Positions 6,300 through 34,862 of a DNA stretch of 64,000 bases are shown in pieces. Each line of letters begins with the position of its first letter. The first letter of the stretch is position 1. Below the pieces are notes generated by a model. The model was not told where the DNA came from and made no database searches. It saw only the letters and a list, made by a program, of their open reading frames with translations. A program made the translations under genes and the position numbers. The DNA comes from Candidatus Levybacteria bacterium CG2_30_37_29 (GTDB lineage: Bacteria; Patescibacteriota; Microgenomatia; Levybacterales; GWA1-39-11), in the NCBI GenBank assembly GCA_001873215.1, contig MNYS01000008.1, positions 2,657 through 66,656 of the forward strand, in the 5' to 3' direction.

Positions 6300-7529
6300 A
6301 TGCTTATGGAAATTCCCCTTGCAGAGAGAATGCGACCTGTAACATTATCACAATTTGTCGGGCAAGATCACCTTGCAGGAATTGGCGGGCCAATAAGAAG
6401 CATGATTGAAAATAGGAAAGTCACTTCAATGATTTTATGGGGTCCTCCGGGAGTCGGCAAAACAACTCTTGCTCATATAATCGCTTCGTCAATTGACGCA
6501 AATTTTGTTTTTTTCTCAGCCGTAACAAGCGGAGTAGAGGATGTACGAAAAGTAATTAAACAAGCAAGGATAGACATTGAAAACAACAAGAAGCAAACAG
6601 TGCTTTTTGTCGACGAAATTCATAGATTTAATAAATCTCAACAAGACGGTTTTTTACCTTACGTTGAAGACGGAACAATAATTTTAATTGGTGCAACAAC
6701 TGAAAATCCGGGATTTCGCGTCAACGCGCCTCTTATTTCAAGAAGCCAAGTTTATAAATTGTCAGAACTTGCAGACGTGGATATAAAGAAAGTAGTCGTG
6801 CGAGCAATTAAATTTTATAAAAAAAATAAATGGGACAAAAATGCTCTGGATCATATCATAAAACAAGCAAACGGAGACGCCAGAAATGCGATAAATGCCA
6901 TAGAACTCGCCGCATCAATTTCAAAAAGCGTAACTCTTGAAATTGCTGAAGTCGCCGTTCAGCAAAAAGCAATTTATTATGACAAAAAAGGGGATTTTCA
7001 TTACGATACGATTTCCGCATTCATTAAATCGATGCGGGGAGGCAATCCTGACGCAACTCTTCACTATTTGGCGCGTATGATAAAGTCAGGCGAAGACCCG
7101 CTTTTTATCGCACGAAGAATGGTTATCTTTGCGAGTGAAGATATAGGCAACGCTCAACCTACAGCACTTGTTGTTGCGACGAGCTGCATGCAAGCCGTAC
7201 ATATGATAGGAATGCCTGAATCCCAGCTTATTTTAGCGCAAACAGCAACCTATCTTGCAACTGCAAAAAAATCTATTGCTTCAACAAGCGGAATTTTTGA
7301 AGCTCTATCTGACATAGATGAAACAAGACTTGAGCCTATTCCTTTGCATCTTCGAAACGCAGCAAACAAAGTTATGAAACAATTTGACTACGGAAAAGGA
7401 CATGTACGCTATCCGTGGCTTGTTGAGAAAGAAACCAAACAAAGAGTAGAACAGGCCATGCCTGCCGGCAGGCAGGAATATATGCCAAAAAATCTAAAGG
7501 GGAAAGTTTACTACAAGCGAGATTGGTAA
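6300..7529 (+). CDS. rarA: replication-associated recombination protein A (AAA+ ATPase)
   Basis: Walker A GPPGVGKTT, Walker B LFVDEIHRFNK, and the MgsA C-terminal region. Carries an 18-nt palindrome insertion near the 3' end (see findings). Confidence 0.85.
   Translation: MLMEIPLAERMRPVTLSQFVGQDHLAGIGGPIRSMIENRKVTSMILWGPPGVGKTTLAHIIASSIDANFVFFSAVTSGVEDVRKVIKQARIDIENNKKQTVLFVDEIHRFNKSQQDGFLPYVEDGTIILIGATTENPGFRVNAPLISRSQVYKLSELADVDIKKVVVRAIKFYKKNKWDKNALDHIIKQANGDARNAINAIELAASISKSVTLEIAEVAVQQKAIYYDKKGDFHYDTISAFIKSMRGGNPDATLHYLARMIKSGEDPLFIARRMVIFASEDIGNAQPTALVVATSCMQAVHMIGMPESQLILAQTATYLATAKKSIASTSGIFEALSDIDETRLEPIPLHLRNAANKVMKQFDYGKGHVRYPWLVEKETKQRVEQAMPAGRQEYMPKNLKGKVYYKRDW
7478..7495. repeat. 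GC-rich palindrome TGCCTGCCGGCAGGCAGG (copy 1 of 5), inside rarA
   Basis: Perfect palindrome encoding MPAGRQ in frame. Identical core to the copies at 29680, 31804, 32226 and 33744. Confidence 0.8.
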
Positions 7530-8436: not shown

Positions 8437-8967
8437 CTATTTACTAATAGTTACGGATCCGTCAGTAAAGGAAGCTTTATATTGCTGTTTTAATTCAATT
8501 TTTGAAAGATCATCTGCAATCAATTTATTAATCACACCTTGCGCTAAAGAAGAAAGTATCGGATTATTCGGAAGCGATCCAAATTGAATGCTTAGATTTG
8601 TTGCATTTGGTACACTTCCCGTTAAATCAACTCCCGCGGTAACATAAAATGAAGGAGTAATTGACCCAAGATTTTTTTTACCTGAAAAGTGGGCGAGTCC
8701 TTTTGTAAAACAAATTTTACCGTCTTCAACTTGTCCTCCAATATAATTCTGGGCTAAGGTTGTTGCCTCACCATCAGTTATGGTAATTGAACCCTTTTCT
8801 AATGCGTCTCCTATTTCCTTATCACTTCTTACCCCTGCGGCTTGACTTTGACACTGCGGTGCTTGTCCGAGCAAAGCTGCCGCTCCCGCTCCTGCGCTTC
8901 CTACAACAATTACACCTAGTACCATAAAAATAATTGCAATAGCTCCGAATCCTTTTTGGCTTCCCAT
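8437..8967 (-). CDS. hypothetical secreted/anchored protein
   Basis: ORF with N-terminal TM segment. No family recognised. Confidence 0.35.
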   Translation of the reverse strand: MGSQKGFGAIAIIFMVLGVIVVGSAGAGAAALLGQAPQCQSQAAGVRSDKEIGDALEKGSITITDGEATTLAQNYIGGQVEDGKICFTKGLAHFSGKKNLGSITPSFYVTAGVDLTGSVPNATNLSIQFGSLPNNPILSSLAQGVINKLIADDLSKIELKQQYKASFTDGSVTISK

Positions 8968-9925: not shown

Positions 9926-10927
9926 ATGGCATTAATTGATGATGTACGAATAAAAGTTAAGGCTGGAAACGGAGGAAACGGAGCAAAATCTTTTCTTACT
10001 ATTACCGGAAATCCGAAAACATTTGCTGACGGAGGAAATGGCGGGCGGGGTGGAAGCGTCTATTTTCAAGCCTCAAATAACATTTCGGATTTAAGTCAAT
10101 TCCGTTTTACTAAAGTAGTTGCTGCAAAAAATGGTCAGAACGGAATGAAAAAAAATCTATTCGGAAAAAAAGGCGAAGACGCGCTTATTCTCGTTCCACC
10201 CGGAACTCAAATTATTAACGAATCGATAGATGAACAGACGGAAATTATAGACCTTGACGTTCCAATCCTTATAGCAAAAGGCGGAGGAGGCGGGCAGGGA
10301 AATCATAATTACAAGCCTGATGCCAGACGCTACGTTCCGCAAAATGAAGTTGGAGGGGCAGGAGAAGAAAAAGACTTACATTTGATATTAAATTTAATCG
10401 CTGATATTGGTCTTATCGGTCTTCCTAATGCAGGAAAAAGTTCGCTTTTAAAAATTCTCACAAATGCAACACCAAAAATCGGAGATTATCTTTTTACGAC
10501 ACTTGAGCCAAATCTCGGAACGGTTCCTGCCAGCCATGATTCGCAAGGCGATGCAGGCGGGGGTAAAATTATTCTTGCAGACATTCCGGGGCTTATTGAG
10601 GGAGCATCTCTTGGCAAAGGGTTAGGTGTAAAATTCCTAAAGCATATTGAGAAAACAAAAATTCTTATGCACTGTATAGACGCACAGGATGCGGATATTC
10701 TCAAAACTTACGAGACAGTACGACGTGAATTTAAAGAATATAGCCAAAAACTTCTTGAAAAAGAGGAAATTATTTTAATTACAAAAAAAGATCTTGTGAG
10801 CTCTAAAAAATTAAAAGAACAAATCACTCTTTTGAAAAAATTTAAGAGGAAAATCCAGCCCGTATCAATTTATGAAGAAACAAGCATTAACACGCTCAAG
10901 GAATTAATCGAATCTTTCAAAATGTAG
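9926..10927 (+). CDS. obg: GTPase Obg
   Basis: Gly-rich Obg fold (GNGGNGAKSF, GGNGGRGGSVYF) followed by the G-domain GLIGLPNAGKSSLL. The start was moved to the in-frame ATG at 9926 to avoid overlapping the upstream membrane gene. Confidence 0.85.
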   Translation: MALIDDVRIKVKAGNGGNGAKSFLTITGNPKTFADGGNGGRGGSVYFQASNNISDLSQFRFTKVVAAKNGQNGMKKNLFGKKGEDALILVPPGTQIINESIDEQTEIIDLDVPILIAKGGGGGQGNHNYKPDARRYVPQNEVGGAGEEKDLHLILNLIADIGLIGLPNAGKSSLLKILTNATPKIGDYLFTTLEPNLGTVPASHDSQGDAGGGKIILADIPGLIEGASLGKGLGVKFLKHIEKTKILMHCIDAQDADILKTYETVRREFKEYSQKLLEKEEIILITKKDLVSSKKLKEQITLLKKFKRKIQPVSIYEETSINTLKELIESFKM

Positions 10928-28921: not shown

Positions 28922-29593
28922 ATGCTAACCAATGTCCGCGAACGTTTTTTGCAAATTCGCATAAGACGAGACGAAAAAGAAATTAAAATTGGATTTTTCA
29001 TAACAGGCATAATAATAATTATTCTTTTGGCCAACGTTGTCTATCTCAATTTTTTTCTTTTAAAAAATAAAGGTGTTGCAAATACGAATATTTCACCTAG
29101 AAAAAGTTCTGTTGATACTATTATTCCATCTCCAACACAAATTCAAGCTCAAAATCAAACTTTAAGTCCTACGCCTATTCCTCCAACCATTGCCATACAA
29201 AATACTTATCGAACAACGACATCAAATACAATAAAAGATTATTTTATTCCCCTAGGCTCGGGGACAAATCAATCAAGCGACTGGGTGGATGTCCCGGGAG
29301 CACAAGTCGCTATTGATTTAGGTCAATATCAAAATGTTAAAGAAGTTCATTTTGAGGCGTCTGTCACTATGCCCACCTCAAACGGATCTGTTTATGTACG
29401 GCTTTTTAACGTTACGGATAAACATCCTGTATGGAATTCCGACGTTAGCGGAGTAGGGAATTCAATATATACTCTTACTTCGCCGGCTATTATTTATGAT
29501 AAGAGCGCAAAAGTGTATCAAGTACAAATGAAAACGCAAATGCAGGTTGCGGCAAATCTTACTCAATCAAGAATCCATGTCACCCTTGAGTAA
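28922..29593 (+). CDS. hypothetical membrane-anchored secreted protein
   Basis: TM anchor, Thr/Pro-rich linker, beta-rich C-terminal domain. Confidence 0.35.
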   Translation: MLTNVRERFLQIRIRRDEKEIKIGFFITGIIIIILLANVVYLNFFLLKNKGVANTNISPRKSSVDTIIPSPTQIQAQNQTLSPTPIPPTIAIQNTYRTTTSNTIKDYFIPLGSGTNQSSDWVDVPGAQVAIDLGQYQNVKEVHFEASVTMPTSNGSVYVRLFNVTDKHPVWNSDVSGVGNSIYTLTSPAIIYDKSAKVYQVQMKTQMQVAANLTQSRIHVTLE

Positions 29594-29623
29594 CAATAAA
29601 CATTTTGAGCGGGAGACGGGAAT

Positions 29624-29655
29624 CGCTCAATTTCTACGAAATTGCGCGCTTTTTT
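29624..29655 (+). terminator. Rho-independent terminator
   Basis: CGCTCAATTTC-tac-GAAATTGCGCG stem followed by CTTTTTT, 30 nt after the stop at 29593. Confidence 0.55.
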
Positions 29656-29679
29656 CCAACAAAAAGAGCGAACCCGCTA

Positions 29680-29697
29680 CCTGCCTGCCGGCAGGCA
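29680..29697. repeat. GC-rich palindrome CCTGCCTGCCGGCAGGCA (copy 2 of 5)
   Basis: Located 27 nt downstream of the tRNA-Gly 3' end, minus-strand sense, before an AGCGGGUUCGCU hairpin with a U-run. Confidence 0.8.
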
Positions 29698-29724
29698 TCT
29701 TCCTTGACCTGCCCGCTAATACTG

Positions 29725-29796
<72 letters not shown>

Positions 29797-29941
29797 ATAA
29801 GCTCTGCAGGCGGGCAAGGAAGCATTCTTAGGCGCACAGTGAAACGAGCACCGCAAGCTCTTGCTTACCGGTGAATTACTCCCGCTGAAAAAACTTGTTT
29901 TTTCAGCACCAGGTTCTCGCAGTGCTCGAAACTGGCGCAGT

Positions 29942-30196
29942 CTATGTTTTTAAACTCATTACTAATTTTAATTTTCTTTCTCTTGGCCAACTTTTAATTT
30001 CCATTTCGCGTTTCAATGCCTGTGACTTTGTTTTATATTCTTCTGAATGAACTAATTCAACAGGCAACTTACCTTTTATTGATTTTGCGCCCTGCTTTCC
30101 AAAATTATGTTGCCACAATCTGTTTTTTATATTTAATGTATATCCTGTATAAAAAGAGCCGTCACTACATTCGACAATATAAACATAATGCTTCAT
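29942..30196 (-). CDS. small GIY-YIG nuclease-family protein (YhbQ/UPF0213-like)
   Basis: The YVYIVECSDGSFYTGYT…RLWQHN…GAK catalytic motif set fills essentially the whole 84 aa. Confidence 0.75.
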   Translation of the reverse strand: MKHYVYIVECSDGSFYTGYTLNIKNRLWQHNFGKQGAKSIKGKLPVELVHSEEYKTKSQALKREMEIKSWPRERKLKLVMSLKT

Positions 30197-30232
30197 TGTT
30201 CTATCTTAGTTATAAGCTCTGCGAAAATCTAG

Positions 30233-30324
30233 CGTGCCAATTTCAACCTGCCTGAACATAGACTGTGCCACATACGAACAACGTGAGTACGTGGCACTGA
30301 AATTTTAGTAAAAATTTCAGTGCC
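30233..30324. repeat. tRNA 3'-flank repeat with two hairpins
   Basis: The 43-nt core at 30241-30283 is identical to 30584-30626. It is followed by the GGCACTGAAATTTT-agta-AAAATTTCAGTGCC hairpin, whose 3' arm overlaps the tRNA-Phe 3' end. Related to 6058-6114. Confidence 0.6.
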
Positions 30325-30393
30325 GAGACCAAGAATTGCACTCGGATAGCCTGTTCTTCAGACAGGTGCCTTGACTACCTCGGCCATCTCGGC
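30321..30393 (-). tRNA. tRNA-Phe(GAA)-like
   Basis: GCCGAGA/UCUCGGC acceptor and anticodon loop CUGAAGA. The D-stem is 3 bp with a Ser/Leu-like D-loop (GAGGUAGUCAA), and the T-loop UGCAAUU is non-canonical. Discriminator A. Confidence 0.55.
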
Positions 30394-30403
30394 AAAAAAA
30401 TAC

Positions 30404-30454
30404 TATATTCGATTGCGAATTCAATGCAATCTCAGACAGTGATTGCATTATATC
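30404..30454. repeat. 51-nt IS-target/IS-end-like repeat (intact copy)
   Basis: TATATTCGATTGCGAATTCAATGCAATCTCAGACAGTGATTGCATTATATC. The first 31 nt are 29/31 identical to 47105-47135, and the tail matches 48255-48271. Confidence 0.55.
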
Positions 30455-30461
30455 AAATGTG

Positions 30462-30534
30462 TGGGCGGTGCAAGACTTGAACTCGCGACATCTTCGGTGT
30501 AAACGAAGCGCTCTACCAGCTGAGCTAACCGCCC
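30462..30534 (-). tRNA. tRNA-Val(TAC)
   Basis: GGGCGGU acceptor, anticodon loop UUUACAC, GCGAGUUCAAGUCUUGC T-arm. Confidence 0.85.
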
Positions 30535-30583
30535 TTTAAACTTTCCTTAGCACAAACCAACATTTGAACAAACCATGTGTTAG

Positions 30584-30626
30584 TTTCAACCTGCCTGAAC
30601 ATAGACTGTGCCACATACGAACAACG
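30584..30626. repeat. tRNA 3'-flank repeat core (second copy)
   Basis: 43/43 nt identical to 30241-30283, ending 10 nt before the tRNA-Leu(GAG) 3' end. Confidence 0.6.
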
Positions 30627-30635
30627 GGAGAAATG

Positions 30636-30722
30636 TGCCGAGGACAGGACTTGAACCTGCACGTCTTATTTAAGGACACAAGAACCTCAATCTTGCGTGT
30701 ATACCAATTTCACCACCTCGGC
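30636..30722 (-). tRNA. tRNA-Leu(GAG), long variable arm
   Basis: GCCGAGG acceptor, anticodon loop UUGAGGU, 17-nt variable arm, GCAGGUUCAAGUCCUGU T-arm. Confidence 0.8.
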
Positions 30723-30776
30723 AAGCTTCGGCGCAAACACCCAACTTGTACAGTTAGTATTTTACCAAACATAGTC

Positions 30777-31757
30777 ATGTTAAAACAAGAACACATTGCT
30801 ATAATGTTTTTAATGGATGTTATTTTTATATTTTTTACAATTCTTGGTCTATCTCTTTTTGAAATAATTACAAGCATTGACAATGCAATTATTAATGCTG
30901 AAGTGCTCGGAGGAATGAGCAATAGAGCAAAAAAATGGTTTTTGACATGGGGAATAGTATCATCTATTTTCATTGTCAGAGGAGTCTTACCCTTTCTTAT
31001 TCTTTATGCAACCGTTCCACAACTTGGTGTTGTAAATACCATAACCGCAGCTTTTTCATCAGATCCCAATATTGCTGAAACCATAAAAGAATCATCTCAT
31101 GTTCTGCTTATTGCAGGGGGGGTCTTTTTAATTTTTCTTTTTTTTCACTGGCTTTTCTTAGAACCTAAAAATTTTGGCCTTAGGGGCGAAAGGTTTTTCC
31201 ATTCAAAAGGTGTTTGGTTTTATGCAATCGTATCAATACTTTTAACAGTAATTGTGTGGTTTGCATTCAAACAAAACAATCCATTGCTTCAGTTTGGCGC
31301 CGTTGTAGGATCTACAATGTTTTTTATAATTCATGGATTCAAAGGATATGCAGAAGAGCAGGAAAAAAAACTTTTATCGGTTGGCGTATCTGATTTTGCA
31401 AAAATTGCATACCTTGAAATACTGGACGCAAGCTTTTCAATTGATGGAGTAATCGGGGCTTTTGCATTTACCTTTGCAATTCCTCTTATACTTATAGGGA
31501 ATGGCTTAGGAGCAATCGTATTGAGGCAAATAACAATTAGCAATATAGAACGGATAAAAAAATATAAATACCTAAAAAACGGAGCAATGTATTCGATTTT
31601 AATACTTGGTATTGTAATGCTTTTGCATAGCTTTAGAATTGAGATTCCTGAATGGTTATCACCCGTTGCAACATTTGCAATTGTTGGTTACTTTTTTTAC
31701 AAGTCAAATATTGACCTTAAAACAATTACTGACTTATCTGAACCAAATAAAAAGTAG
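30777..31757 (+). CDS. TerC/DUF475-family integral membrane protein
   Basis: SIDNAIINAEV motif and ~8 TM segments. The track ORF starts earlier (TTG at 30564), inside the tRNA genes. Trimmed here to the first ATG past them. Confidence 0.55.
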   Translation: MLKQEHIAIMFLMDVIFIFFTILGLSLFEIITSIDNAIINAEVLGGMSNRAKKWFLTWGIVSSIFIVRGVLPFLILYATVPQLGVVNTITAAFSSDPNIAETIKESSHVLLIAGGVFLIFLFFHWLFLEPKNFGLRGERFFHSKGVWFYAIVSILLTVIVWFAFKQNNPLLQFGAVVGSTMFFIIHGFKGYAEEQEKKLLSVGVSDFAKIAYLEILDASFSIDGVIGAFAFTFAIPLILIGNGLGAIVLRQITISNIERIKKYKYLKNGAMYSILILGIVMLLHSFRIEIPEWLSPVATFAIVGYFFYKSNIDLKTITDLSEPNKK

Positions 31758-31782
31758 AGAAGTCCCACTTCATTTTTCAAAG

Positions 31783-31874
31783 TGCCCGAGAGAGGACTCG
31801 AACCCTGCCTGCCGGCAGGCAGGCTCCACACCATTGCTGGTACAGCGTTCTGAACGCTGCTTGTCTACCTGCCA
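31783..31874 (-). pseudogene. tRNA-Leu(CAG) 3' three-quarter fragment with a 20-nt palindrome in the T-stem
   Basis: D-arm, CAGCG-UUCAGAA-CGCUG anticodon arm, long variable arm and CUCGGGC-A acceptor 3' strand are all present. Removing CCTGCCTGCCGGCAGGCAGG (31804-31823) restores a GGAGG/CCUCU T-stem. There is no matching 5' acceptor strand locally. Confidence 0.6.
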
Positions 31875-31881
31875 AAGCATG

Positions 31882-31962
31882 TGCCAGGAGGGGGACTCGA
31901 ACCCCCACATCTTGCGATACACGGTTCTGAACCGTGCTTGTCTACCATTTCAACATCCTGGC
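31882..31962 (-). tRNA. tRNA-Leu(CAG), intact
   Basis: GCCAGGA/UCCUGGC acceptor, anticodon loop UUCAGAA, 13-nt variable arm, GGGGGUUCGAGUCCCCC T-arm. Begins 4 nt after the GIY-YIG stop. Confidence 0.8.
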
Positions 31963-31966
31963 TTAT

Positions 31967-32212
31967 TTATGTTGCGCTATTTATCTCTTGTATTATCTCA
32001 CGACCAAACCCTGATTTAAAGAACTTCTCGAGTTTAATTGCGTCCCCTAGCGACACACAGATTTCTACATGAATAAGCTTAAATGGTGCTAAATGTTTTA
32101 TGGAAGCTGTTTTATTATTGTTGTGTTCGGAAAGTCTTCTTAAGATATTATTCGTATAACCTTTATAAAAAACGTCCTTTTTTTGACTTTTAATAACATA
32201 TACGTAATACAT
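31967..32212 (-). CDS. small GIY-YIG nuclease-family protein (second copy)
   Basis: The YVYVIKSQKKDVFYKGYT…RRLSEHN motif set fills essentially the whole 81 aa. The start ATG directly abuts the tRNA 5' fragment. Confidence 0.75.
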   Translation of the reverse strand: MYYVYVIKSQKKDVFYKGYTNNILRRLSEHNNNKTASIKHLAPFKLIHVEICVSLGDAIKLEKFFKSGFGREIIQEINSAT

Positions 32213-32213
32213 A

Positions 32214-32261
32214 TGCGTGTCTACCCCTGCCTGCCGGCAGGCAGGATTCCAACACTCGGGC
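32214..32261 (-). repeat. tRNA 5' fragment (acceptor plus D-arm) with palindrome in the D-loop
   Basis: GCCCGAG-UG-UUG-GAAUCC[UGCCUGCCGGCAGGCAGG]GGUAGA-CAC-GCAU. The acceptor strand is the exact complement of the 3' strand of the fragment at 31783. Near-identical to the plus-strand unit at 33727-33773. Confidence 0.6.
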
Positions 32262-32291
32262 TCATACGTATTGTACCAATACTAATTTTTC

Positions 32292-32324
32292 TTGACAAGA
32301 AATAGCAATTTATGTAATTATAAT
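32292..32324 (+). promoter_or_regulatory. putative promoter
   Basis: TTGACA at 32292 with TAATTA/TATAAT about 17-21 nt downstream. The ATG at 32332 is very close, suggesting a short leader or leaderless transcript. Confidence 0.3.
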
Positions 32325-32331
32325 GTATTAA

Positions 32332-32925
32332 ATGAAAAAGCTTGTTCTGCTCGCAAGTTACTCGATTTTTATGCCGATTTTTTTACTCGCCTTAATTATA
32401 TATTCCATGTCGCTTACCAAAGTGGCTGTCGCAAATTTTAACGACGCAAACACAGAGGTTTTGGGTACAGAAACAGCATCATCTCATCTCATTTCCAATA
32501 ATACAAATAGGGATATTATTGCTGCATCCGGTGAAAAAGGGCGTACTACAATTTTGAAAGAATTTTTGAACAAATATAATTCGCCTCTTTTACCATACGC
32601 GGTGCACATTGTTTCTGCGGCAGACTTTTACGGAATTGACTACCGTCTTCTTCCGGCAATTGCACTTCAAGAAAGCACGCTTTGCAAAAAAATTCCAAAA
32701 GAATCTTATAATTGTTGGGGATTTGGAATTTATGGAGGAAATGTTACACGATTTACAAGTTATGAGGATGCAATAGAAACAATTTCAAAAACTTTGGCAA
32801 AAGAATACAAAGCAAAAGGCCTTGAACATCCGACAGAAATAATGACAAAATACACGCCGCAAAGCAATGGAAGCTGGGCGAAAAATGTAAGCTACATAAT
32901 GGACAGAATAAGCCCCTCGCTTTAG
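32332..32925 (+). CDS. membrane-anchored secreted protein, possible peptidoglycan-hydrolase (lytic transglycosylase/lysozyme-like) domain
   Basis: TM anchor. Central LLPAIALQESTL…CWGFGIYGG region paralogous to the gene at 33137-33685. Confidence 0.35.
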   Translation: MKKLVLLASYSIFMPIFLLALIIYSMSLTKVAVANFNDANTEVLGTETASSHLISNNTNRDIIAASGEKGRTTILKEFLNKYNSPLLPYAVHIVSAADFYGIDYRLLPAIALQESTLCKKIPKESYNCWGFGIYGGNVTRFTSYEDAIETISKTLAKEYKAKGLEHPTEIMTKYTPQSNGSWAKNVSYIMDRISPSL

Positions 32926-33136
32926 GTATTTCTTAAACTTCAATCTACTTTAAGGTGATTTTGAACATTTTTGTGCATAAAACTACATATTATGGCCTGT
33001 AGTAAAGTACTTGACAAACCTATAGTTCTATGATAAGATACTGATTAGATCCTAAGGTAGCCCAAAACTACTTTAGGATTTTTTAATGGTTTGAGTAATC
33101 CTCAAGTTTCTATTTGTCATAGGCACTTGAATAATT

Positions 33137-33685
33137 ATGAAAACTACAAAAACTTTTTTAATCCTTGTAGCACTTCTTATTGCTACACTTACATTTTCCA
33201 AAAATGCATACGCGGAAGGTACTGCTGTACCCTCAGCAAAGCTTTTGTCATTTGACAGCTCAAAAATCATTGAAAAGGACGTACGCAGTATTGCAATTGA
33301 AAATATTTTCAAAAAATACAATTCTCCACTTCTAGGCCTTGGCGCAACTTATGTAAAATACGCTGATAAATACGGCGTGGACTGGAAGCTTTTACCTTCA
33401 ATATCAGGGCTTGAATCAAGCTTTGGACAATTTCTTATGCCCGGCTCTTATAATGGTTACGGATGGGGCGGAGGCTACATATATTTTGAAAGTTGGGAAG
33501 ACGGAATTGACATAATTAACAAAACTTTGCGCGGCAACTACATGGATAAATGGGGCGCAACCGACGTTTGGAGTATTGGTCCTATTTATGCAGAGTCAAA
33601 AACATGGTCTGTGAGGGTAAACGGCTTTATGAATGAAATCGAAGCAGAATACAAATCTCTTCTCGCAGTCACCCCCACAATCTAA
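33137..33685 (+). CDS. paralogue of 32332-32925
   Basis: Shares NSPLL…YGVDWKLLPSISGLESSFGQ…GYGWGG with the upstream gene. Confidence 0.35.
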   Translation: MKTTKTFLILVALLIATLTFSKNAYAEGTAVPSAKLLSFDSSKIIEKDVRSIAIENIFKKYNSPLLGLGATYVKYADKYGVDWKLLPSISGLESSFGQFLMPGSYNGYGWGGGYIYFESWEDGIDIINKTLRGNYMDKWGATDVWSIGPIYAESKTWSVRVNGFMNEIEAEYKSLLAVTPTI

Positions 33686-33726
33686 CTCTTTTTCCAAAGC
33701 TGGTTAAACTGTATAATACCTTTATT

Positions 33727-33773
33727 GCCCGGGTGGTGAAATTCTGCCTGCCGGCAGGCAGGAGTATACACGC
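33727..33773 (+). repeat. tRNA 5' fragment with palindrome in the D-loop (plus-strand copy)
   Basis: GCCCGGG-UG-GUG-AAAUUC[UGCCUGCCGGCAGGCAGG]AGUAUA-CAC-GCAU, followed by CGCAA-GACC-UUGCG and a U-run. No 3' half is present. Confidence 0.6.
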
Positions 33774-33825
33774 ATGGTTTAAGAACTTGCTCTCAAGTTC
33801 GCAAGACCTTGCGACCTTAATTTTT

Positions 33826-33906
33826 GCGGATGTGGTGAAATGGTATACACGATAGGTTTAGGACCTATTGCCGTAAGGCGTGGAGGTTCAAGTCCTCTCA
33901 TCCGCA
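33826..33906 (+). tRNA. tRNA-Leu(TAG), long variable arm
   Basis: GCGGAUG acceptor, anticodon loop UUUAGGA, variable arm UGCCGUAAGGCGU, GGAGGUUCAAGUCCUCU T-arm. Confidence 0.85.
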
Positions 33907-33953
33907 CAAATACAGCTTTACTTATAGGCTCATTTCCAGTATAATATCTCTCT

Positions 33954-34862
33954 ATGGCAAACGTGAAGAAAGAAAATACGGACCAAACAGCAGTTAAAAC
34001 CTATTCTACTGCAAAACCTCGAGTAATCGTAAATCGGCTTTCTGATTCATCTGTTGAAATAAAAATTGTTGTCCCGTGGGGAGACGTAGAAAAGGTTCGA
34101 AAAGAAGTAGTAGATAAGCTTGCGCAAACTGTAACCGTGCCTGGATTTAGACCCGGAAAGGCGCCAAAAAATGTTGCCTCTGCAAAAATTCCAAAAGAAA
34201 AAGTACAGGAAGAAATGCTCAAAATTATTTTAACCAATGAGTATACAAAAGCCGTAAAGGACAATGATATAAAGCCGATTATAAATCCTAAAATTCACAT
34301 AGAAGCTTTTGAGGAGGGAACCCCGCTTGAATTCGAGGCAATGACTTGTGAAGAACCAATAGTTGAATTAGGAAATTACAAAGACGCTATCAAAAAAATC
34401 ACTGCTCCTTCTAAAATTGTTTTACCCGGCAAAGACCCTTCGGCTAGCTCAGGGCAGGAGAAGATTCCGCTTGATGATGTATTAAAAGCTGCGCTTTCGG
34501 CAACAACAACAAATATTCCACACGTGTTAGTAGAACAAGAAACAAACCGACTTTTATCACAACTTCTTGACGAAATTAAAAGGCTTGGAGTAAGTCTTGA
34601 CCAATATCTTGCATCACGCAGTAAAAATTCGGATCAGCTAAGAACAGAATATGAAGAAAAGGCAAAATCTGATATAAAGCTTGAATTTATGCTAAGAAAA
34701 ATTGCCGATACCGAAAAAATTGTTGTTGAACAAAAAGATATTGAAACCGCTCTTGCAACGATTGAAGACCAGAACCAAAGAAAAGAAATAGCACAAAATC
34801 CGTATATGCTTGCAGGAATTATCCGTCAGCAAAAAACTCTTGATTTTCTTTCAAAGCTTTGA
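33954..34862 (+). CDS. tig: trigger factor (shortened form)
   Basis: N-terminal ribosome-binding motif GFRPGKAP plus a PPIase-like middle region. 302 aa, versus about 430 aa canonically. Confidence 0.6.
   Translation: MANVKKENTDQTAVKTYSTAKPRVIVNRLSDSSVEIKIVVPWGDVEKVRKEVVDKLAQTVTVPGFRPGKAPKNVASAKIPKEKVQEEMLKIILTNEYTKAVKDNDIKPIINPKIHIEAFEEGTPLEFEAMTCEEPIVELGNYKDAIKKITAPSKIVLPGKDPSASSGQEKIPLDDVLKAALSATTTNIPHVLVEQETNRLLSQLLDEIKRLGVSLDQYLASRSKNSDQLRTEYEEKAKSDIKLEFMLRKIADTEKIVVEQKDIETALATIEDQNQRKEIAQNPYMLAGIIRQQKTLDFLSKL

Follow-up and report, generated by a model that had tools for sequence, protein, structure and literature searches.

In Candidatus Levybacteria bacterium CG2_30_37_29, the gene of a leucine transfer RNA (tRNA), tRNA-Leu(CAG), is found in two pieces that enclose a small GIY-YIG nuclease gene and a second, intact tRNA-Leu(CAG). 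The locus lies on the minus strand (31783-32298) of a 64,000-nucleotide (nt) stretch of contig MNYS01000008.1 (assembly GCA_001873215.1, positions 2,657 to 66,656), here called the window, and each of the two pieces is interrupted by a copy of the same 20-nt GC-rich palindrome, referred to below as PAL. A first-pass annotation of the window had described this layout, i.e., a 5′ piece, a GIY-YIG open reading frame (ORF), a 4-nt gap, an intact tRNA-Leu(CAG) and a 3′ piece, with a palindrome in the D-loop of the first piece and another in the T-stem of the last. All of these elements were recovered at the same positions; they are given in Table 1, together with related sites in the neighbourhood.

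Table 1. Features of the tRNA-Leu(CAG) locus and of related sites in the window
Feature	Position	Strand	Remarks
Promoter-like site	32270-32298	-	TTGTCA, 17 nt, (TG)TACAAT; 10/12 matches, extended -10; best site in the region
5′ relic of the resident tRNA-Leu(CAG), 48 nt	32214-32261	-	positions 1-29 (acceptor 5′ strand, D-arm, first bases of the anticodon stem); PAL inside
PAL copy 1 (CCTGCCTGCCGGCAGGCAGG)	32226-32245		exact 20-nt insertion in the D-loop, positions 16/17; deletion restores the D-loop
GIY-YIG ORF, 81 amino acids	31967-32212	-	ATG at 32212, stop TAA at 31969-31967; minimal Slx1/UPF0213-type nuclease domain
Intact, probably cassette-borne tRNA-Leu(CAG)	31882-31962	-	ARAGORN call; Rfam tRNA, 53.8 bits
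3′ relic of the resident tRNA-Leu(CAG)	31783-31875 (start 31875/31874)	-	D-arm to 3′ end (about positions 10-76); PAL in the T-stem
PAL copy 2	31804-31823		exact 20-nt insertion, T-stem positions 52/53
Second GIY-YIG ORF, 84 amino acids	29942-30196	-	between tRNA-Phe and tRNA-Gly; Pfam E=2.7e-17, family hidden Markov model (HMM) E=5e-25
PAL variant	29680-29699		25 nt 3′ of tRNA-Gly(GCC), within an apparent decayed tRNA-Gly 3′ remnant (by eye, weak)
43-nt repeat (cgttgttcgtatgtggcacagtctatgttCAGGCAGGttgaaa)	30241-30283; second copy 30584-30626	-	half-PAL (CAGGCAGG), then a tRNA-Leu-like D-loop (TTGAAATTGG)
Third relic: 5′ part of a tRNA-Leu with a UAA-like anticodon loop	33727-33786	+	PAL (33743-33762) in the D-loop; no ORF

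The 5′ piece reads GCCCGAG TG TTGG AAT[PAL]GGTAGACACGCA, and the relative L009 has the same acceptor strand, GCCCGAG (L numbers designate the DNA stretches compared with the window). The 3′ piece terminates in CTCGGGCA, and its acceptor strand, CTCGGGC, is the exact complement of that of the 5′ piece. The two pieces are not clean halves; a D-arm segment of about 20 nt (roughly positions 10-29) is found in both, with a few differences (TTGGAATGGTAGACACGCA versus TTGGCA-GGTAGACAAGCA). Within these relics, PAL is a precise insertion without any target duplication. Joining the pieces at the GGTAGACA that they have in common and removing both PALs yields an 83-nt sequence that ARAGORN recognises as tRNA-Leu(CAG), complete with a 7/7 acceptor stem, D-, anticodon and T-arms and a long variable arm; the minimum free energy (MFE) fold of this RNA is a cloverleaf (-34.1 kcal/mol, z=-3.0). 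No tRNA is called by ARAGORN in the joined sequence if either PAL is kept. The complementary acceptor strands and the outer CAG anticodon reported by the first-pass annotation are thereby borne out, and the check it had proposed, folding the joined pieces without their palindromes, gave the cloverleaf.

The intact inner tRNA, whose MFE fold is also a cloverleaf (-34.9 kcal/mol), is presumably the working gene; a spacer of 6-7 nt (31881-31876/31875) lies between it and the 3′ piece. The ARAGORN call obtained from the 3′ piece after PAL removal pairs a spurious 4/7 acceptor with the end of the inner tRNA and was not accepted as a sign of a complete second gene. The pieces were located by alignment and by ARAGORN on edited sequences, and an Rfam search at E≤10 over 29400-34000 did not detect them. 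The promoter-like site (32298-32270) stops 8 nt ahead of the 5′ piece and is probably the promoter of the resident tRNA, now driving the stub, the ORF and the tRNA; comparable boxes (TTGTCAAG...TATAAT) lie ahead of the tRNA-Leu(CAG) in L015 and L009, where the gene is uninterrupted. The 340-nt interval between the pieces is taken up by the ORF and the inner tRNA. The GIY-YIG gene is the sole ORF in this interval, and the duplicated segment is the D-arm, unlike the att duplication of the integrase type, which concerns the tRNA 3′ end. The same locus is present in five independent metagenome assemblies with one single-nucleotide polymorphism, and an assembly artefact is therefore excluded.

The two genes of the locus have different ancestries. 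With the tRNA-Leu(CAG) of L009, the joined outer gene shares 90% identity and the inner gene 77%. The DUF475 membrane-protein gene that adjoins the locus, which assigns the window to the Levybacteria/Microgenomates part of the Candidate Phyla Radiation, has a counterpart in L009 with 79% identity. In the more distant L012, the tRNA-Leu(CAG) shares 88% identity with the inner gene and 78% with the outer one, whereas the inner gene reaches 77-83% with its counterparts in the nearest relatives. Judged from these identities, the outer gene is the resident one, of native type and vertically inherited, and the inner gene comes from another lineage. In the nearest relatives (L006, L007, L009 and L015), the same neighbourhood contains one tRNA-Leu(CAG), which is uninterrupted and has no adjoining GIY-YIG gene, while the ORF is found at tRNA-Leu(CAG) in the window, L163, L203, L206 and L207. 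Two further checks proposed in the first-pass annotation, a search of related genomes for an uninterrupted gene and an alignment of the two tRNA bodies to see whether the intact one is foreign, are thus answered in the affirmative. A native outer gene, a foreign inner gene and uninterrupted relatives argue, when taken together, that the resident gene was invaded and functionally replaced. In L012, a tRNA of the inner type is followed by a decayed 3′ relic of the outer type, with a GC hairpin at the same T-stem spot.

The strain-level variant L163 is 99.2% identical to the window over the end of the ORF, the inner tRNA and the outer 3′ piece. This identity stops exactly at the last base of the 3′ piece and is followed by unrelated sequence, marking the boundary of a strain-variable island at the tRNA end; the unit formed by the ORF and the tRNA thus has a history of lateral movement or of recombination at tRNA boundaries. 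In L163 (253-2566), two ORFs of unknown function (261 and 273 amino acids) replace DUF475 after the outer tRNA piece. An integrase island was considered as the origin of this different flank, in which no recombinase-like ORF was evident, as judged by eye only. Extra 5′ or 3′ relics of tRNA-Leu(CAG) lie beside the intact gene in L009 (about 10225-10290) and L014 (about 7050-7120 and 7215-7290); they have T-loop insertions and no ORF, as expected after a past invasion followed by loss.

The product of the 81-amino-acid ORF matches Pfam PF01541 (E=1.9e-15) and consists of the catalytic domain only. Residues Y5, Y16, G18, R26, H30 and E62 are invariant (100%) in 65 homologues. The nearest structures in the PDB are 1YWL (E=2.4e-5) and 1ZG2, both UPF0213 proteins, with Slx1 next as a weak match; a 2006 survey of the superfamily places 1YWL and 1ZG2 in a minimal stand-alone Slx1 cluster (PMC1564403). 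The protein belongs to this Slx1/UPF0213 (YhbQ-like) branch of the GIY-YIG superfamily, and not to the I-TevI or UvrC type. Ratios of nonsynonymous to synonymous substitution rates (dN/dS) of 0.11-0.20 among homologues, obtained from the less distant pairs since dS was saturated between the window ORF and its closest homologues, point to purifying selection on the family. Public annotations bear generic names only, and an NCBIfam search of the ORF matched no named family.

Scanning metagenome contigs for homologues of the ORF gave 80 loci, and in about 32 of them a tRNA on the same strand starts between -38 and +20 nt from the ORF stop. The abutting tRNAs belong to ten or more isotypes (Leu, Arg, Asn, Ser, Pro, Glu, Ala, Gln, Lys and Asp). 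Thirty-three loci combine at least 60 nt of upstream sequence with a tRNA that lies on the same strand no more than 60 nt from the stop; in 29 of them, the ATG is immediately preceded by a significant 5′ stub of that tRNA (null distribution, 99th percentile 10.4). The stub often matches the first 17-44 nt of the intact tRNA without any difference. Almost every stub is broken by a GC-rich hairpin, very often PAL and sometimes a nested PAL-in-PAL; in other clades the stub carries a 50-nt hairpin, a TCCGCC...GGCGGA hairpin or an array of C-GNA-G/UUCG mini-hairpins. The junctions are stereotyped, the stop codon meeting nucleotide 1 of the tRNA and the stub lying immediately ahead of the ATG. In 728 kb of DNA from the Candidate Phyla Radiation (CPR) that was chosen regardless of GIY-YIG, five of eight family ORFs abut a tRNA, for an expectation of about 0.007 each.

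Four more tRNA-Leu(CAG) cassettes, obtained independently via protein homologues (L203, L205, L206 and L207, from Amesbacteria and others), consist of a stub with PAL, the ORF and an intact tRNA whose nucleotide 1 is touched by the stop codon; in L203, the last 23 codons of an earlier ORF copy are kept ahead of the stub. The mirror order, i.e., intact tRNA, ORF, hairpin and 3′ stub, is found in L203, L201, L132 and L117, and one mirror-form locus belongs to an Ignavibacteriaceae genome, outside the CPR. Homologues that have no tRNA beside them are located in hairpin loops of ribosomal RNA (rRNA) genes (16S helix-6, 16S near position 1100, and 23S), where inverted repeats bracket them, or right before the gene of transfer-messenger RNA (tmRNA). 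The rRNA-sited homologues agree with the GIY-YIG ORFs published in non-intron insertions of CPR rRNA genes, where tRNA genes are unmentioned (PMC11270868), and a recent survey of tRNA introns in Patescibacteria makes no mention of GIY-YIG genes, stubs or palindromes (PMC13011429).

Several individual loci add to this picture. In L098, L107 and L109 the ORF lies between smpB and ssrA, about 50-70 nt separating the stop from the tmRNA, with a GC-rich hairpin (gcccgcaacgc...gcgatgcgggc) in between. In L091 the ORF is apparently inside the RNase P RNA, as judged by eye (GGAGGAAAGUCCG is just past the stop); Rfam made no call. The ORFs of L090, L096, L100, L108, L118, L111, L128-L130, L135, L138, L140, L150 and L162 are bracketed by inverted repeats of 12-15 nt that touch the start and stop codons (e.g., CCCCCACCACTTTT-ATG...TAA-AAGTGGTGGGGG), so that the ORF lies in the loop of a long hairpin, and some of these units are apparently within protein-coding or intergenic DNA. 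Different stubs (Val-like in L017, 9480-9680, and Gly in L059, 3640-3700) carry the same 20-nt hairpin motif GGTCGCCTCAGGCGACAGGT just 5′ of the ORFs; L017 has an additional, older tRNA-Val stub upstream, suggestive of repeated invasions. In the Glu/Asp/Ser-associated clade (L114, L148, L151, L160 and L164), the stubs have tandem mini-hairpins of the forms C-GAA-G, C-GCA-G and C-UUCG-G. We take the first two to match the very stable DNA mini-hairpin motif d(GCGNAGC), which hints at a role at the level of DNA rather than RNA. The idea that the stub is part of the travelling cassette was partly rejected: in L102, L126 and L115 the stub fits the local tRNA, although PAL is found at the same D-loop position in all three.

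We consider it probable that the resident tRNA-Leu(CAG) of the window was invaded by a mobile cassette, made of the GIY-YIG gene and its own tRNA-Leu(CAG), that spreads in the manner of intron-less homing. The recurrence of the layout in dozens of related loci points to a family of selfish elements, apparently undescribed, that colonise tRNA genes and of which the window locus would be one member. Disruption of a native tRNA by a cassette with a replacement tRNA was also the first interpretation listed in the first-pass annotation, and it is supported by the 90% and 88% identities, the uninterrupted relatives and the family-wide layout; the rearranged tandem tRNA pair that the annotation had also proposed explains neither the nesting of the inner gene nor the pattern seen across the family.

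In the proposed course of events, the small Slx1/UPF0213-type gene, joined within 4 nt to its own tRNA, would have landed in the region of the D-arm and anticodon stem, leaving relics of positions 1-29 on the 5′ side and of about positions 10-76 on the 3′ side, which share a duplicate of about 20 nt. Both relics would be dead, each being broken by PAL and overlapping instead of complementing the other. The cassette tRNA would now cover Leu-CAG decoding, and the element would therefore not be simply lost by the host. Because the promoter-like site ends so close to the stub and the stop codon lies 0-5 nt from the tRNA, one can reasonably presume that the old tRNA promoter drives transcription of the nuclease gene, whose 5′ leader would be formed by the stub and its hairpin, and that an RNase P cut at the 5′ end of the tRNA both frees the tRNA and sets the 3′ end of the mRNA. 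The conserved active site, the selection on the protein and the patchy distribution of the gene suggest that spread is driven by the nuclease, which would break cassette-free tRNA genes; repair would then copy the ORF and the tRNA, using tRNA sequence as homology. Two outcomes are conceivable. In the first, a complete foreign tRNA ends up nested in the resident gene, as in the window and probably in L086, L089 and L103. In the second, which would apply to most relatives, the 5′ (or 3′) part is duplicated and an intact gene is regenerated beside the stub. Such a product could arise by break repair, if the ends of the cut gene invade the stub and the intact tRNA of the donor so that the ORF and the 5′ part of the tRNA are copied, or else from the nested form, through recombination of the inner tRNA with the outer 3′ relic.

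Several considerations weigh against this scenario. The comparison with L163 covers the 3′ side only, the 5′ context being absent from that stretch; the five strain-level assemblies show no presence/absence polymorphism, and a further tRNA-Leu(CAG) may exist elsewhere in the genome. A separate DNA-binding module is absent from the 81 amino acids, so sequence-specific homing is not obvious, and the 2006 survey rated the Slx1-like clade as non-selfish and mostly vertical (PMC1564403). The strong purifying selection and the presence of a second ORF at the same site in L006 could mean a host function. A regenerated or intact tRNA would keep the target site, which leaves the immunity of the carrier allele unaccounted for, and a duplication of 20 nt is not expected from a GIY-YIG cut with a 2-nt stagger followed by clean homing.

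The palindrome deserves separate consideration. The window holds 5 PAL-like copies at three mismatches or fewer, versus none in 100 shuffles. An assembly or adapter artefact was ruled out by the constant position of PAL in the five assemblies, its small natural variants, its nested copies and its in-frame copy in the gene of the MgsA/RarA ATPase. PAL is a real and mobile sequence, considering that solo, nested and in-frame copies exist. The in-frame copy is a 21-nt variant (7455-7476, in the ORF at 6300-7529 on the plus strand) located in the part that encodes the C-terminal domain, where it adds AMPAGRQ within an otherwise canonical VEQ-EYMP motif; L086 has a comparable LPAGKAG stretch in an ORF of 351 amino acids. 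Perfect GC-rich hairpins are rare in unbiased CPR DNA, where 662 kb contained just 12; of these, 8 are PAL, and half of the 12 (6) are at tRNA genes or pieces, regions that make up 4.7% of the bases. The exact 20-mer is also present in 35 IMG/VR viral-contig stretches (L166-L200), mostly of 55-68% GC, and a member of the GIY-YIG family is near PAL in one of them (L197); the other 34 rule out that PAL always travels with the GIY-YIG gene. The IMG/VR copies often lie between direct repeats of 7-14 nt or in heptamer-like low-complexity repeats (e.g., L174 at 8396, L184 at 3391 and L168 at 1660). In a high-GC, phage-type tRNA-Met(CAT) (L190, 2239-2330; L167, about 8570-8660), PAL occupies precisely the place of the variable loop; the gene is nonetheless recognised by ARAGORN, with a length of 92 nt and a long extra arm, and PAL may be tolerated there. 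Save for that one phage tRNA-Met, no full-length tRNA interrupted by PAL and devoid of an intact neighbour was found among 78 sites, which argues that PAL-bearing copies are dead. No cognate enzyme of PAL was identified; a RAYT-directed scan of the window was not made. PAL may act as a spacer that breaks up the direct repeat and protects the ORF from deletion, as an end-protecting or RNase III hairpin of the ORF mRNA, or as the cognate cruciform or hairpin site of the Slx1-like nuclease.

The last of these roles would be central to a two-part gene drive of the poison-antidote type, which we regard as unlikely. A mobile PAL, or a clade-specific GC hairpin, would first cripple the resident tRNA, the Slx1-like nuclease would cut the extruded cruciform, and repair would install the ORF with a clean tRNA, the element thus making the need that it then meets. 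The presence of a GC hairpin in almost every stub would be accounted for (29 stubs among the 33 loci), as would the occurrence of PAL within 120 nt of the ATG in about 16 of the 80 ORF loci, a more than hundred-fold enrichment over the 8 copies in the 662-kb background. The type of hairpin tracks the ORF clade in a rough tree, which may mirror nothing else than host lineage. In L086, where the ORF is 66% identical, the isoacceptor is a different one and the flanks are unrelated, PAL occupies the same two tRNA positions as in the window. Both the stub and the downstream native copy of L089 contain the hairpin, which is therefore older than the cassette there; solo and nested PALs indicate that PAL moves independently, and relatives of Slx1 cleave branched and hairpin DNA (PMC1564403). 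However, the exact PAL of the 34 mostly high-GC IMG/VR stretches with no GIY-YIG gene nearby does not depend on the nuclease, prior knockout of a single-copy tRNA should be costly, and the dead tRNA with PAL alone and no adjacent intact copy was not found among the 78 sites.

It is very unlikely that the GIY-YIG protein is a non-selfish host factor, i.e., a repair nuclease or an RNA-processing enzyme co-transcribed with tRNAs, in which case the pieces would be the debris of tandem duplication and the PALs unrelated miniature repeats that survive only in dead DNA. The dN/dS values and the shared position of the second ORF in the window and L006 agree with such a function, as does the occurrence of PAL at a distance from any GIY-YIG gene. 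The Slx1-like clade is moreover held to be vertical, and a link with RNA is hinted at by a prokaryotic member that is fused to TrmH, the tRNA G18 methyltransferase (PMC1564403). Yet the inner tRNA is nested in the outer one and belongs to a different lineage, and the same tRNA of the nearest relatives has no ORF. Homologues are found beside ten or more tRNA isotypes, in rRNA loops and beside tmRNA, and there are truncated ORF copies and iterated stubs. Stereotyped stop/tRNA and stub/ATG junctions are also unexpected from random decay.

A split or intron-like tRNA, whose pieces would be expressed and then assembled or ligated, with the PALs pairing or being removed in RNA, is hardly credible despite the exactly complementary acceptor strands, the perfect cloverleaf of the joined PAL-free sequence and the ability of two PALs in one transcript to pair in an in silico fold (a pairing that resembles the inverted repeats around rRNA-borne ORFs): the pieces overlap by about 20 nt instead of abutting, the PALs are at unrelated positions (D-loop and T-stem) and abolish the cloverleaf, the pieces enclose an intact isoacceptor, the gene is uninterrupted in relatives, equivalent stubs at other loci lack any 3′ partner, neither Intron_gpI nor another RNA family was matched by Rfam at E≤10 over 29400-34000, and the locus has no bulge-helix-bulge geometry. 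The first-pass annotation had likewise rated this reading as the less likely one. To our knowledge, bacteria do not have the archaeal splicing endonuclease. In the split tRNA of Nanoarchaeum equitans and the permuted tRNA of Cyanidioschyzon, separated pieces jointly hold a whole tRNA. The window pieces, unlike these, are overlapping and disrupted, have no complementary leader or bulge-helix-bulge, coexist with an intact copy and are bacterial.

Other sites in the window carry traces of the same kind. The first-pass annotation had pointed to a second GIY-YIG gene beside tRNA genes, and this ORF (29942-30196) indeed belongs to the same family according to the family HMM. Its orthologue in L006 (4633-4869), which is 63% identical, occupies the same place between tRNA-Phe and tRNA-Gly, and the second ORF is therefore an older copy, inherited vertically. 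The third relic lies 40 nt upstream of an intact tRNA-Leu(TAG) (33826-33907) and may be a cassette that has lost its nuclease gene. The two copies of the 43-nt repeat come after tRNA-Phe and tRNA-Leu(GAG), and the one at 30241-30283 is upstream of the second GIY-YIG ORF; the 8-mer CAGGCAGG occurs in the window only in PAL copies and in these two repeats.

With regard to known systems, the cassette comes closest, in behaviour, to intron-less homing by free-standing GIY-YIG genes such as segB of phage T4 (PMC2330249). There too, a nuclease gene lies among tRNA genes, the neighbouring tRNA allele travels along, and no intron or intein is involved (PMC2330249, PMC2988022). SegB differs in being a protein of about 220 amino acids with a DNA-binding domain, of the homing endonuclease/UvrC lineage, whereas the window protein is a bare Slx1/UPF0213 domain; the Seg likeness raised in the first-pass annotation thus holds for the behaviour and not for the protein. 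The setting also differs, since the window is part of a cellular chromosome, the target is left as nested relics or a duplicated stub, and GC hairpins are found at the junction. The GIY-YIG insertions in CPR rRNA genes involve the same protein family and the same host group (Tsurumaki et al. 2024, PMC11270868), but a tRNA gene cannot tolerate an insertion, so that the element brings a duplicated or replacement tRNA. The locus also resembles fractured genes, in which the two halves of a host gene are separated by a free-standing endonuclease gene that has inserted there (Dassa et al. 2009, PMC2677866). In that case, split inteins restore function at the protein level, whereas at the window locus a complete second gene would restore it and the halves would be dead. 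Islands and prophages of the integrase type insert in tRNA genes, duplicate the 3′ end and restore function by the partial copy that they carry. They also leave an intact gene and a stub, but no integrase is present here, it is usually the 5′ part that is duplicated, the cargo is a single nuclease of 80 amino acids, and a GC hairpin lies at the junction.

As for the palindrome, mobile palindromic sequences are known in other genomes: the PstI palindromes of Neurospora mitochondria flank tRNA genes, and Rickettsia palindromic elements lie in frame in proteins. The PAL variant in the MgsA gene is similar to the latter, and the GC clusters of yeast mitochondria are, like PAL, short GC-rich palindromes dispersed in an AT-rich genome (PMC4478555). 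PAL differs from mobile GC palindromes in its length of only 20 bp, the lack of target duplication in the relics, its identity across very distant genomes and its strong tie to GIY-YIG cassettes in the CPR. The searchable literature gave no account of a target restored by a nested or partly duplicated tRNA, of an obligate stub hairpin, or of a target range that covers tRNA, rRNA, tmRNA and probably RNase P RNA; nothing relevant was found on GIY-YIG with tRNA in the CPR, on YhbQ, on UPF0213 or on the PAL sequence.

These observations have practical and biological implications. Stubs and hairpin-bearing pseudo-tRNAs will mislead tRNA annotation and tRNA-based completeness checks in the CPR, and cassette-borne tRNAs can distort phylogeny. 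The exact 20-bp PAL, common to CPR bacteria and high-GC viral contigs, is a mobile sequence that deserves a study of its own. The finding would gain in interest should the palindrome and the nuclease turn out to function together: a poison-antidote drive, if true, would hold an essential RNA gene hostage to a selfish element and would be the first case in which the 'housekeeping' Slx1 branch of GIY-YIG nucleases is put to selfish, mobile use. The insertions published in CPR rRNA genes become linked to tRNA, tmRNA and probably RNase P RNA genes. Homing endonuclease genes usually need an intron or intein to stay harmlessly inside an essential gene, and a nuclease gene of about 80 residues that carries or regenerates its whole target, as seems to be the case here, would represent a third route to harmless invasion, by which the host is made dependent on the element for an essential tRNA. 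Minimal GIY-YIG proteins of the Slx1/UPF0213 type, previously thought to be vertical housekeeping enzymes, would then likely have a selfish, mobile life-style.

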